A stretch of DNA of 64,000 nt, taken from positions 128,001 through 192,000 of the forward strand of contig CBDCQT010000012.1 in assembly GCA_965220745.1 (NCBI GenBank), written 5' to 3'. Below the pieces are notes generated by a model. That model was not told the DNA's origin and ran no database searches. It saw nothing but the letters and a program-made list of their open reading frames with translations. Shown here in pieces: positions 10,438 through 57,105 of the stretch. The DNA is from Alphaproteobacteria bacterium (GTDB lineage Bacteria; Pseudomonadota; Alphaproteobacteria; UBA828). The translations under genes and the position numbers were made by a program. The number at the start of each line of letters is the position of its first letter. Position 1 is the first letter of the stretch.

Positions 10438-10520
10438 CGAGAGCGTTTCCGTGTAGAAACACCAAGAGACGATATGGTGGTTTAGAAGTTTGAGCCAATA
10501 TGCGATGGTCGTCCACTTCT
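10438..10520 (+). repeat. Left inverted-repeat end of the element
   Basis: CGAGAGCGTTTCCGT...TGCGATGGTCGTCCACTTCT. Confidence 0.7.
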
Positions 10521-10529
10521 CATGTTGTA

Positions 10530-10542
10530 TATCAGAGGTTTG
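10530..10542 (+). promoter_or_regulatory. IHF consensus site, left end
   Basis: TATCAGAGGTTTG fits WATCARNNNNTTR in an AT-rich tract. Confidence 0.5.
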
Positions 10543-10758
10543 TCAGATATTCAACCATAGAATTTTGAGTACAATGGCCATGGCAGGATTTGCCTGTCTT
10601 GTGGTGATAGTGACACTTTGGTGTTGAAGTGTTCCTCATATGGGCGGTAATCTGCGGCTTATGGGGTGCATCTCGATGATAGATATGTAGTCCGTATGGT
10701 TTCTACGGTATAATATGGGACGATATTGGGAAATCTCCATAGGATAGCGAGCGGGCCG

Positions 10759-11091
10759 ATGCCGGCGAGACAAAAGGGCGAAAAGCGGAAGCAGCGCTGG
10801 GTCGGTGCAACCGATGCCGAATGGGCCGAGATCAGCGAAGGCGCGCAAGCGGCGGGATTGTCCAATTCCGACTACGTCATCCGGTGCTGCCTTGAGGGCA
10901 AGGCGCGGGCCGAGCCGACCGATGCCGCTCTGCCCTCGCCGGTGCTGCAGCGAGCGGTGAAGGCGGTATTGATCCTCGAAGAACTGCAAAGGCTGCGGCT
11001 CGCGAACGACGGCGAGATAGGCGAAGCACTGTGGCGGAGGGCGGTGGGCGAGGTGGACGCCTGGATCAAGGGCGAGGACGATCTGGGATGA
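10759..11091 (+). CDS. Ribbon-helix-helix/MobC-like protein 1
   Basis: RKQRWVGATDAEWAEISEGAQAAGLSNSDYVIRCCL pattern; TATAAT at 10709-10714. Confidence 0.6.
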   Translation: MPARQKGEKRKQRWVGATDAEWAEISEGAQAAGLSNSDYVIRCCLEGKARAEPTDAALPSPVLQRAVKAVLILEELQRLRLANDGEIGEALWRRAVGEVDAWIKGEDDLG

Positions 11092-11104
11092 AGCGGAAGG
11101 TGCC

Positions 11105-54347: not shown

Positions 54348-54670
54348 GATCCCTGTTTCTCGACCGACCGGGGCGGCGGTCAAGCTGTGAGCTTTATAGC
54401 TCGCCAGTCGGGAATTCAAGGCGGGCAGAAAATAGAGCGGCCACTGGGGTCAAACGTGTCTCACGACCCGTCGAACAGGGGGCGTTTCGACGACAGGCCG
54501 CGTCGCAAGGCTTCAGTTGGTTCGGCTTCGGAGAGGGTAGAAACGAGAAGCGCAGTTGTTTCCGGCAGAGCGACGTGAGCAGCGCGGCACTCACCCGTTG
54601 TCGATCAGCAGCTCGGCGGCGCGCTTGACCGTCTTGGCATTTATGCAATGTGCCGCCGACACGTCCTCGA

Positions 54671-55834
54671 TCACGAAGCCCACGATTCGCCGGTTTCCAT
54701 TGCGGCCTCGACGGCCATTCCTATGCGCTCTGCGGCGGCTTGCAGGTCGCGGTCGCCGACGTGGGCGTATCGCAGGGTCATCACGGGGTCGGCGTGCCCG
54801 AGCATGCGCGCGACGGTGGACAGGGGAACGCCCCGGGCGACCGCCTGGCTGGCAACGGTATGCCTGAGATCGTGCAGGCGGACGTCGTCAAGCCCGGCTT
54901 CCTTCCGCGCCCGGCGCCAGAGGCACAGGGAATGTGAAAGCGGTTTGTCCGGATGCCTCGGGGAGGGGAACACGTAAGGGCTTGTGGTACGCGGCTGGCG
55001 GGCGAGGATGGCCTGCGCGGCCTGGCTCAGCCAGACCCTCCGCGGCCCGGTCTTGGAGTCCGCGAGGTTGAGACGGTCGCCGTCGACCTCCGACCATCGG
55101 AGCTTCAGGACCTCGCCCGCTCGGCAGCCGGTGAGCAGGAGCAACCGGATGACGTCGGCCTGCTGCCGGCGGGAGGGCCGCTCCCCGACCAGCCGGTCGA
55201 GGACGCGGTGAAGCCTCTCGATCTCTTCGGTGGAGAGGAACCGGGTGAGTTTCGGGCGAGGGTTCTTCGTGATGCCCTTGACGGGAGCGGTTCCGGCATG
55301 GCCGGCGGCGAGGGCGGCGTTCATGATCTGGCCGAGGATCTCGAGCGCTTTGTTGGCTCCGCCCGGCGCGGTGCGGCTGTAGGCGTCGAACCACCGCTCG
55401 ACGTCGATCCGCCGGATGACGTCCAGCGGGATGCGGCCGAAGGCGGGGATAAGCTGCCGCTCAAGCACACGATTGGCGAATTGGCAGGACGACGGGGCAC
55501 AGCGGCGGCGGTACGCCGGCAACCACTCATCGAGGACGAAGTCGCGAAACAGGGGAGCGCCGGAACGGCCTTCCGCCGGACACGGAGCGATTCCCAGGCG
55601 GAGCGCTAGGGCTCGCTTCCGGGCGTTCCCGACGGTCATGAGCGCGGCCGGGCCGACGGTCGCCCTGACCGGCTCTCCCTGGACGCGCCCGTGCCAGACG
55701 AAGCTGCGATGCCCGGACGGGCGCACCCGCACGCCGAGGCCGGGTACTTCGGTGTCCCACACCACGTATTCCGTGGTGTGCGGCTTCAACTTGCCGACGC
55801 CCGCGTCGGTCAGCCGGACCCTCCGCCCCTTCAC
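54671..55834 (-). CDS. Tyrosine integrase B with N-terminal arm-binding-like domain
   Basis: VWDTEVPGLGVRV; TGCR, DSKTG, HDLRH, LGH, RYAH all intact; GTG start overlaps the integrase A stop (GTGA). Confidence 0.9.
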   Translation of the reverse strand: MKGRRVRLTDAGVGKLKPHTTEYVVWDTEVPGLGVRVRPSGHRSFVWHGRVQGEPVRATVGPAALMTVGNARKRALALRLGIAPCPAEGRSGAPLFRDFVLDEWLPAYRRRCAPSSCQFANRVLERQLIPAFGRIPLDVIRRIDVERWFDAYSRTAPGGANKALEILGQIMNAALAAGHAGTAPVKGITKNPRPKLTRFLSTEEIERLHRVLDRLVGERPSRRQQADVIRLLLLTGCRAGEVLKLRWSEVDGDRLNLADSKTGPRRVWLSQAAQAILARQPRTTSPYVFPSPRHPDKPLSHSLCLWRRARKEAGLDDVRLHDLRHTVASQAVARGVPLSTVARMLGHADPVMTLRYAHVGDRDLQAAAERIGMAVEAAMETGESWAS

Positions 55835-56958
55835 GCCTGCCTCCCCGACAGGACGGGAGACAGGGTCTCGACCGCTTCGCGAACCGTGGCGTCGGACAGG
55901 TGGGCGTATTTCAGGGTGGTCGACGCGCTCTCGTGACCGAGCAGGCGGCCGACGGTGCGCACGCTCTCGCCGCAGAGCAGCGCCATGCTGGCGTAGGAAT
56001 GTCTCGTGTCGTGCAGGCGGACATCCTGCAGCCCGGCTTCCTCCCTCACGCCGCGCCAGAAGTGATCCAGCCACATCCATGGAGTGCGCCGACCGGCAAC
56101 CGGGAAGACGAATCCGGACGACCGGGGCAGACTGTCGAGGACATCGCGTGCCGCCTCGCACAGCCAGACCGTGCGCGGGCCGACTTTGCTGTCGGGCAGA
56201 TAAAGCCGCCCCTCCCGGTAGGAGCGCCATTGGAGGGTCAGGATCTCCGACTTGCGGCACCCGGTGAGCAGCAGCAGGCGCACGGCGGCTACGTGCAGGG
56301 GGCGGCTGGCCTCGTACCGGCCCAGCACTGCGGCGAGGCGGCGATACTCCTCGGGGGTCAGGAAGCGCTCTGACCGCCCCTGCCGGTAGCGGCGGATGCC
56401 GGCGCAGGGGTTGCTGTTCTCCGGGCGGTATCCCCAGGCCTCGGCCTGCTGCATGATGACCGAGAGGACCGGCGCCGAGCGGTTCGCGGCGGCGGGCGTT
56501 GCGTGGAGCCCGCGGAACCAGGCCCGCACCTCCTGCCGGGTTATCTCTCCGATGGGCCTGCCCGCGAAGAAGGGCAGGATCTGCCGGCGGAGGTAGGCCC
56601 GGTTCACTTCCAGGGTGCGCGGCTTCCAGCGGCGCCCGTAGCGGTCGAAGACCTCCTCGGCGACCGTCTCGAAGAGGGTGCCGCCGGGGTCCGCCGCATC
56701 GGGCTCCCGACCGTCGCGTAGCGCGGCCAGCATTAATCTGGCCCTGGCCCGCGCCTCGGGCTCGGCGATCGTGGCCGCGTCGCCTATGATCTTCCAGACC
56801 CGTTTGCCCCTGTGCTGGCTGTGGATGAAGTAGCGCGTAGAACCGGAGGGCATGACCCGGACGCCGTACCCCTTGAGTTCGGCGTCCCGGACATCGCGCA
56901 CCTTGCGGCGGGGCCGAAGGGCGTCGACCCTGCGTTGGGTGAGTCGGATGATTGGCAT
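55831..56958 (-). CDS. Tyrosine integrase A with N-terminal arm-binding-like domain
   Basis: [33 protein letters not shown] all intact. Confidence 0.9.
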
Positions 56959-57025
56959 GATTGCGTGTCTCCGATCTGTTGCAGCGGGGTGCGGAATCGG
57001 CTTGAATTCCGCGCCCAGTGGCAAT

Positions 57026-57105
57026 AGAAACGGAAGACCATTGCAATCGAATCAGTTACTTAGCACCGAAGGTGCGTGTTTCCGTGTGAAACGGAAACGC
57101 TCTCG
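57026..57105 (-). repeat. Right inverted-repeat end of the element, with IHF consensus and internal palindrome
   Basis: rc CGAGAGCGTTTCCGT...TGCAATGGTCTTCCGTTTCT; AATCAGTTACTTA at 57050-57062; GTTTCCGT-N5-ACGGAAAC at 57078-57098. Confidence 0.7.

Follow-up and report, generated by a model that had tools for sequence, protein, structure and literature searches.

A 46.8-kb composite integrative island with a coupled tyrosine integrase pair and a MobF relaxase in an alphaproteobacterium of lineage UBA828

We analyzed a 64,000-nt stretch of DNA (hereafter, the window) from an Alphaproteobacteria bacterium (UBA828), corresponding to positions 128,001–192,000 of contig CBDCQT010000012.1 in assembly GCA_965220745.1. 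It holds an island that is a real integrative element and probably a mobilizable one. The island is unusual in having an ancient pair of coupled integrases, a palindromic joint of four half-sites, no repeat flanking the insertion, and a MobF relaxase without a coupling protein. The reading we prefer, and to which we give somewhat better than even odds, is that of a 46.8-kb composite integrative island in which two tyrosine integrases, IntA and IntB, act on a palindromic attP core and whose circular form is nicked by MobF and mobilized in trans by a helper. The island is a member of a little-described twin-integrase lineage rather than a wholly new class of element. Coordinates below are those of the window, with the strand in brackets.

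The insertion is proven by relatives in which the site is empty. A genome scan with the 422-aa protein encoded to the right of the island (57176–58444) returned 11 loci. One of these, an alphaproteobacterial metagenome-assembled genome (MAG) contig designated L004, matches window positions 7235–10326 at 98.3% and 57102–61736 at 97.8% DNA identity. The two L004 blocks adjoin with a 4-nt overlap, and the junctions read in the alignment join window position 10326 straight to 57106. A second locus (L005, flanks at 84% DNA identity) has the same empty-site arrangement, and in a third (L006, 78–83%) both flanking genes are adjacent as well. The flanking genes are adjacent in all three relatives with at least 80% protein identity; the 422-aa gene and a LolA-like gene are neighbors in 10 of the 11 loci, the eleventh ending at the end of its contig. 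Because these relatives join its flanks, the segment 10327–57105 (46,779 bp, no strand assigned), which they lack, is a proven insertion, and its borders are fixed to the base. An earlier first-pass annotation had bounded the element at 10438 and 57105 and had named adjacency of the flanks in relatives as the check on its proposal. The flanks passed that check and the right border was exact, whereas the left one lies at 10326/10327, 111 bp outside 10438.

Direct repeats forming a shared core at both borders, as in P4/SXT-type islands, are lacking. All that the two borders share is a stretch of four nucleotides differing at one position (CTTG at the left, CTCG at the right), and a search for direct repeats between the border regions yielded just an 8-mer and a 10-mer, neither present at both borders. 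The insertion is not at a tRNA or tmRNA gene or at a conserved gene end; the site is intergenic, within a conserved operon (MMPL/422-aa protein/LolA-like) that the island interrupts. There are no tRNA or tmRNA genes in the 64-kb window and no Rfam family reached its gathering score, so there is no tRNA-type att site here and the termini resemble no described RNA family. Megablast of both end regions against plasmids gave no match, and neither border coincides with the end of an insertion sequence (IS).

Both borders coincide with a 12-nt site, GAGCGTKTCCGT, which occurs three times in the 64 kb when up to one mismatch is allowed, each time exactly: at 10326 (+), 10441 (+) and 57091 (−). The left terminus (10326–10352, +) carries one copy (10326–10337) within a hairpin-forming palindrome. 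As single-stranded DNA, positions 10327–10366 are predicted to fold at −12.5 kcal/mol (z −3.28), which one of 200 shuffles equaled. The right terminus (57074–57105, −) is made up of a hairpin palindrome (57078–57098), the inverted 12-nt site (57091–57102) and the last 3 nt, and the single strand 57066–57105 has a predicted fold of −9.7 kcal/mol (z −3.53), a value equaled by none of 200 shuffles. The right border is 7 nt 3′ of its hairpin and the left border is 1 nt from its own.

Abutting the two termini creates a 26-nt near-palindrome with a 2-nt center and 12-nt arms that are complementary at 11 of 12 positions, and the observed crossover is 1 nt from the center of this joint. A junction-spanning palindrome of equal quality appeared in 121 of 200,000 random joins of window positions. 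The terminal 20-mers match each other, inverted, at 15 of 20 positions, and the joint, which represents one event, can be parsed as either 12-2-12 or 10-6-10. Since each terminus is itself palindromic, the joint would carry four half-sites in alternating orientation. It looks like a tyrosine-recombinase att core and is likely the attP core of the element. The terminal inverted sites would thus be best read as the halves of a palindromic attP core, of the kind that any tyrosine-recombinase element splits.

The first-pass annotation had described the element as bounded by inverted repeats, and the repeats that it reported are real. The perfect 15-nt inverted repeat is present at 10438–10452 (+) and 57091–57105, and a second inverted block matches at 16 of 20 positions between 10501–10520 (+) and 57026–57045 (−). 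Inverted sites do stand at both ends of the island, but what was taken for the left arm is a third copy of the site, which lies inward of the true end by 111 bp, and we read the ends themselves as attP halves. This inner copy shares 15 of 15 nt with the right end, followed by the 16/20 block at matching spacing, and has no hairpin of its own (z −1.66). It may be an accessory or arm-type site, or else a vestige of an earlier end. Comparison of the outer 111 bp (10327–10437) with the rest of the window and with 18 loci gave just chance matches of 12–17 nt. With 128 inverted pairs of at least 14 nt in the window, the 15-nt repeat is not rare by length; it gains weight from its place, GAGCGTKTCCGT being confined to the ends. 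The integration host factor (IHF) site proposed for each end also held up. The consensus pattern WATCARNNNNTTR has two matches in the window, at 10530–10542 (+) and 57050–57062 (+), at most 216 and 56 bp from the left and right ends, respectively; 0.81 matches were expected, and two or more were seen in 19 of 100 shuffles.

As had been noted at first pass, two coupled and intact integrase genes lie just inside the right end. The first, intA (55831–57024, −; 397 aa), is 81 bp from that end, and the second, intB (54671–55834, −; 387 aa), begins with a GTG whose overlap with the TGA stop of intA is 4 nt (55834–55831). Pfam Phage_integrase matches score 58.5 bits for IntA and 80 bits for IntB, the catalytic R, HxxR, H and Y are kept in both proteins according to the alignment, and the two are 40% identical. 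Both have the N-terminal DUF4102 (Arm-DNA-bind_3) domain seen in P4/SXT-type islands, IntA above the cut-off (29.0 against 27) and IntB marginally under it (26.9). The excerpted account in PMC8138268 gives DUF4102 as characteristic of the IntSXT subgroup, which places both integrases there.

When IntA was searched by tblastn against 72,556 plasmids, the best identity was at most 42%, and 25 of the 30 best records had at least two matching places. Ten plasmid loci were inspected, of which two had no annotation. In all eight annotated loci the integrase is one of an adjacent pair, with six 4-nt overlaps, one 40-nt overlap and one 101-nt gap. We then built a maximum-likelihood tree from nine pairs (18 proteins, none omitted), comprising the window pair and pairs from alpha- and gammaproteobacterial plasmids. 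A single branch separates first-position from second-position genes (support 93/92; none of 500 label shuffles gave a value as low), with IntA among the first genes and IntB among the second, and the two halves of the tree show similar host groupings. The split by position shows that the two genes have long formed a module; they did not arise locally by duplication, nor are they two islands that happen to lie in tandem. Judged from these sequences, IntA–IntB is an ancient, co-inherited gene pair that recurs on alpha- and gammaproteobacterial plasmids, and this position-wise grouping is what we take to define a twin-integrase module. The suggestion of a new class did not survive this result, the pair being an old recurrent plasmid module. 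[quoted passage not shown]

We also predicted the structure of an IntA–IntB complex. The score was 0.49, against 0.00 for the best of three controls, with at least 68% of contacts agreeing among runs and partner pLDDT values of at least 76. Among reference pairs, 51 of 78 solved complexes attain the mark for a pass, as do 2 of 108 mismatched pairs; at scores up to 0.60, 5 of the 78 solved complexes passed, and all 4 passing mismatches (of 180) also lay there. The result is graded as weak support and is not counted as evidence here, because tyrosine-recombinase oligomers are among the solved structures and the pass may come from likeness to them.

Genes beside the plasmid pairs are often concerned with defense or modification (L001, L015, L023, L025), including type I modification genes, a DNA modification system, an N-6 methylase, Drt3b and a HEPN protein. 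In the window, intB is adjoined by a gene for a 721-aa DNA methyltransferase-like protein (52254–54419, −; Pfam Eco57I 26.3 bits against 25.3; PADLOC MTase_II, E 8e-12). On an Aurantiacibacter plasmid, ssb is directly upstream of the integrase pair, and in a Sphingobium element it is at the far end. The Aurantiacibacter plasmid also has, about 150 bp before its first integrase, a sequence nearly identical to the Sphingobium att core (L015 6536–6560; L017 777–792), and this copy may hold an unsplit attP or a tandem junction.

Two plasmid relatives of the pair could be delimited against sister plasmids with empty sites. On plasmid 2pYBL2-2 of Sphingobium sp. YBL2, a 26.6-kb element interrupts an RND adaptor gene and is flanked by a 16-nt direct repeat (15/16 identical), with the first integrase starting 13 bp from the repeat. 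On pS22301 of Shewanella baltica OS223, the pair and type I modification genes belong to a 9.3-kb element that has a 13-nt direct repeat at its borders, and a palindrome spans its integrase-proximal border. These elements resemble the island in several ways. They are discrete insertions with an orthologous pair just inside one end, the IntA-like gene first and the IntB-like gene second, reading inward, and with a palindrome at the integrase-proximal border; the OS223 element also has defense or modification genes beside the pair. They differ from it in their direct repeats, their att sequences and the lack of a relaxase module (neither element encodes a relaxase), and their integrases are 32–43% identical to those of the island. 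The 13- and 16-nt repeats indicate that, in these branches at least, the att sites of the lineage are of the ordinary kind with a shared core, a further point against a new class. Seen beside them, the island appears to be the odd one, either sitting at a secondary site or belonging to a branch that tolerates an unlike center.

The relaxase, MobF (TrwC/TraI type), is encoded at 13767–19298 (−) as an 1843-aa relaxase-helicase. The first-pass assignment is borne out by 234.4 bits for the NCBIfam MobF model (cut-off 100) and by Pfam matches of 249 bits to TrwC and 165 bits to AAA_30, and its domains stand in the order expected of MobF, TrwC (23–311) followed by an SF1B helicase (AAA_30, 440–628; UvrD_C_2, 833–880). 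At 15573–15662 the gene contains five tandem 18-nt units, which would encode a repeated hexapeptide in the C-terminal half, where no domain was recognized. A relaxosome module does stand close inside the left end, where three ribbon-helix-helix (RHH) genes had been proposed. The first of them (10726–11091, +) is a NikA-like relaxosome accessory protein at 33.5 bits for PF21983 (cut-off 27); the third (11407–11925, +) stays below the cut-off with a weak NikA-like match of 20.2 bits, its paralogy being visible in the alignment; and the open reading frame (ORF) between them (11105–11431, +) has no Pfam match and qualifies by paralogy only, through an N-terminal pattern common to both neighbors. 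An IHF of the island's own was correctly called, as the gene at 23033–23374 (+) encodes an IHF-alpha-like DNA-bending protein (NCBIfam NF001401, 120.3 bits, cut-off 111; Pfam Bac_DNA_binding). The DUF1173 call fared less well. A language-model look-up alone points to a possible DUF1173/YagA-like protein of 455–515 aa (12051–13598, +; start at 12051 or 12231), with a score of 0.96 and 219 of 256 features but a recognition value below the tool's mark. This ORF had no Pfam, NCBIfam or PADLOC match, and its plasmid matches were just partial (24–33%) and uninformative.

We scanned 67 ORFs (55 + 12, including every island ORF of at least 400 aa) for Pfam domains of coupling proteins or of a type IV secretion system (T4SS), and none was found, as the first-pass annotation had claimed. 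Transfer would therefore need a helper. Among plasmid relatives of the relaxase, the best three (none above 40% identity) have a T4SS DNA-binding (coupling) protein annotated alongside, which makes its lack in the island stand out.

A second relaxase gene, missed at first pass along with the IS elements described here, shows that the island is not the single clean unit that had been supposed. Only the first 354 aa of this second MobF protein remain (21697–22761, −; Pfam TrwC 228.8 bits). Of these residues, 250 (71%) are identical to the start of the full relaxase, and the likeness of the two genes extends about 44 bp upstream of their start codons. Between the two genes is an IS3-family element (19654–21699, +; HTH_Tnp_1 and rve domains; ends as read by us), one side of which borders on DNA lying 355 bp ahead of the full relaxase, and the other on codon 354 of the fragment. 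Since it contacts unlike points on each side, it joins two unrelated flanks. Its transposase gene contains an exact tandem duplication of 779 bp (20141–20440/20920–21219), which may be real or an assembly artifact. The simplest history consistent with these sequences is that two related elements once lay side by side and an IS3-linked deletion then removed the middle. By this reconstruction the present copy is a fusion, with a left part up to the first relaxase and a right part running from codon 354 of the second relaxase to the integrases. The island, riddled with IS elements, may no longer be mobile in its present form. The interval between the relaxase remnant and the IHF gene (22762–23032, no strand assigned), at a divergent position, is a candidate origin of transfer (oriT) region.

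If the preferred reading is right, the translationally coupled, catalytically complete, arm-domain (DUF4102-type) integrases IntA and IntB would jointly act on the ends. After excision the termini would abut in the circle and rebuild the 26-nt near-palindrome as the attP core. Strand exchange would take place in the center of this core with a target matching at 3 of 4 nt (CTTG/CTCG), possibly a secondary site, and the lack of a flanking direct repeat would follow from an exchange at the center with so short a match. The arms would be bent at the consensus sites near each end, either by host IHF or by the island's IHF-alpha-like protein. MobF, with its RHH helpers, would nick the circle, which would then be transferred by way of the coupling protein and T4SS that a conjugative element in the same cell provides.

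Several observations weigh against this reading. It is drawn from a single insertion event of the element at hand, and its mechanism is predicted from sequence. Neither an oriT or nic site nor an excisionase was recognized in the island, and the sequence ahead of the intact relaxase is interrupted by IS3 after 355 bp. Each end may come from a different element, in which case it would mean more that the 12-nt site and the 16/20 block are conserved. A simple core-site model leaves unexplained both the 15-nt identity of the inner copy and the spaced 16/20 block. The 10-nt core of the 12-nt site is found in none of 14 plasmid loci and once each in 3 of 11 genome loci, which by our own estimate is about chance; this fits lineage-specific att sites, but leaves the element without a second witness. 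Lastly, both delimited relatives carry direct repeats and the island carries none, which points to an atypical site or a different mechanism.

One such mechanism is that of the SEs, in which a pair of tyrosine recombinases produces a circular copy with a short spacer between its joined inverted ends and inserts this circle without homology, so that one border has a foreign spacer in place of a direct repeat. We consider this unlikely, though it is the alternative we take most seriously. The two coupled recombinases at one end, the imperfect inverted terminal repeats (15/20), a joint that parses as 10-nt arms around a 6-nt spacer, and borders with unlike short sequences (CTTG/CTCG) and no direct repeat all correspond to features listed for SEs in the excerpts of PMC10214605. 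However, the island does not have the core operon intA-tfp-intB-srap: there is no room for tfp between integrase genes that overlap by 4 nt, and the gene after intB encodes the 721-aa methyltransferase-like protein and not a small Srap. Both integrases are of ordinary size with arm domains, whereas in SEs and Tn554 one of the two recombinases is ordinary and the other large (PMC10214605). In the same excerpts, SEs are without a relaxase, and Tfp and Srap homologues are reported in Gammaproteobacteria only. That two relatives of the pair use ordinary direct-repeat sites also argues against an SE-like origin. A shade less probable in our view is that IntA and IntB represent an unrecognized, widespread class of obligately heteromeric arm-type integrases, for which, in the branch of the island, a joint of four half-sites folding into hairpins would be the substrate; the element would enter a new cell as single-stranded DNA led by the relaxase, and a single-strand exchange would be resolved by replication. 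CTX phage and integron cassettes integrate from a folded strand in this way, with a single-strand exchange resolved by replication. An event of this kind would account for the lack of a direct repeat, the hairpins at the termini and the association with a MobF relaxase.

Two further explanations dispense with the integrases altogether. The island could be an accretion of unrelated pieces brought together by IS activity and homologous recombination, with the end motif a relic and the integrase pair a passenger. Its three IS elements, truncated relaxase, truncated HpaB-like gene, uneven GC content (0.56 to 0.72 per kb) and the integrase relic 4.4 kb outside it (61478–61765) would all be at home in such a history, which we nevertheless hold to be improbable: relatives lack all 46.8 kb as a single block whose borders are exact to the base, these borders coincide with copies of the 12-nt site and with the palindromic joint, and no IS end is present at either of them. 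Least credible, and very improbable in our judgment, is that the borders were made by the HUH relaxase, with MobF recognizing the terminal hairpins as oriT-like, cutting a few nucleotides 3′ of them and inserting a single strand without target duplication. TrwC can insert a single strand at oriT-like targets without target duplication, as can elements of the IS200/IS605 type at theirs. The stable hairpin at each terminus, the right border 7 nt 3′ of its hairpin, the lack of a direct repeat and the large MobF relaxase encoded within the island are in keeping with this idea. Yet the geometry is not mirrored at the left end, where the border is 1 nt from the hairpin, and no 12-nt site lies near either relaxase gene. 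A distance of 81 bp separates the hairpin and site from intA. Even without a relaxase, relatives of the pair form discrete insertions and have a palindrome beside the first integrase.

The remainder of the island is largely cargo (24853–50651, about 26 kb, no strand assigned), identified by Pfam. It encodes a MetE-like protein, an amidase, a Liv-type ABC transporter, an N,N-dimethylformamidase beta-like protein, a CoA ligase, a carboxyltransferase, a Rieske oxygenase, a second ABC system and EamA. At 32863–35657, the dimethylformamidase beta-subunit-like gene (DMFA2_C, 320 bits) precedes a 110-aa ORF that matches no family and is possibly the small subunit. The amidase, Liv-type transporter and dimethylformamidase-like genes together suggest amide catabolism as the cargo trait. 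An IS remnant lies within the cargo (Pfam; 41535–42446), and an IS1380-type transposase gene follows it (50841–52181, −; Pfam DDE_Tnp_1_4, 544 bits). The flank of the latter element (50775–50840) has a 66-nt inverted match (91%) at window positions 116–181, and from this a second copy is probably present at or beyond the start of the window.

The cluster that the island splits (5857–10216 and 57176–60927) encodes an MMPL/sterol-sensing transporter, the 422-aa protein and the LolA-like protein. Its neighbors are a sterol-methyltransferase-like gene (Sterol_MT_C domain) and a GPP34-P450 fusion, and there is a weak match to the model of the sterol transporter BstA. The region looks like a bacterial locus for the synthesis and transport of sterols or related lipids. 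The same three-gene cluster was found in Latescibacterota and Gemmatimonadota MAG loci. The integrase C-terminal relic at 61478–61765 is on the minus strand, and L004 has a longer relic of 178 aa (6432–6968) that is 62% identical to IntB and 52% to IntA. These relics beside the transporter operon suggest an older, decayed element of the same integrase lineage.

The island provides a base-precise example of an integrative element that is driven, probably, by two co-evolving integrases instead of one. Should IntA and IntB function as a heteromer, in the manner of XerC/XerD but equipped with arm-binding domains, the pair raises the questions of how site choice is divided between the two proteins and why some members need a shared core and the island apparently none, and it could possibly furnish programmable two-component integration tools. 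The island also brings its host catabolic genes of the amide/dimethylformamide type together with transporters, and splits a conserved lipid-transport operon that adjoins sterol-type genes.

Published systems are compared here as they are described in excerpts of the cited papers. The island has what defines an integrative mobilizable element (IME), namely a site-specific integration module and its own relaxase (MobF) with a NikA-like RHH protein, with no mating-pair formation system found. Like the IMEs described in PMC5704250, it combines a tyrosine-recombinase module with a relaxase and accessory proteins and lacks a T4SS; unlike the canonical ones, it has MobF, two integrases and no flanking direct repeat. 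The sections of Guedon et al. (2017) cited here state that no known canonical IME encoded MobF and that none of canonical type had been described in Proteobacteria (PMC5704250), whereas a 2026 preprint, in the part cited, treats relaxase-bearing IMEs as common. In the island the twin-integrase module is combined with a MobF relaxase but no coupling protein; by that account, a relaxase of this type was unknown among canonical IMEs in 2017 (PMC5704250). ICEPmu1 and ICEMh1 are said to use an XerCD-like pair (PMC6861422). By their description, they differ from the island in being full conjugative elements located in a tRNA-Leu gene with direct repeats of 11–13 bp (PMC6861422).

Tn554 and the RIT elements likewise have several tyrosine recombinases in adjacent genes, and inverted ends (PMC3414803; PMC10214605). 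Tn554 has one long and one short recombinase plus TnpC (PMC3414803), while the island's integrases are of 397 and 387 aa, and RIT elements have three recombinases and 34-bp terminal repeats (PMC3414803), while the island has two integrases. As described in these excerpts, neither carries cargo plus a relaxase of the island's kind (PMC3414803; PMC10214605). We also considered BIM elements and rejected them, since a BIM consists of one recombinase and an unrelated protein (PMC3414803). The SEs (SE-6283 and SE-6945; Idola et al. 2023, PMC10214605; PMC9345347) differ from the island in that they need the genes intA-tfp-intB-srap, combine an ordinary with a large recombinase and, in the excerpts cited, have no relaxase (PMC10214605). 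The island, in turn, has two ordinary-size arm-domain integrases and an alphaproteobacterial host, and neither tfp nor, judging by the size and type of the gene after intB, a srap-like gene is present at that place. Still, SEs resemble the island in that one end carries two tyrosine recombinases in coupled genes, the inverted repeats at the termini are imperfect, the joint is palindromic, and both a direct repeat and a conjugation apparatus are lacking (PMC10214605; PMC9345347). Their terminal inverted repeats are imperfect and 13–19 bp long, with a 6-bp spacer at the joint (PMC10214605). SEs and Tn554 already pair two tyrosine recombinases with inverted ends (PMC10214605), which also argues against giving the island a class of its own.

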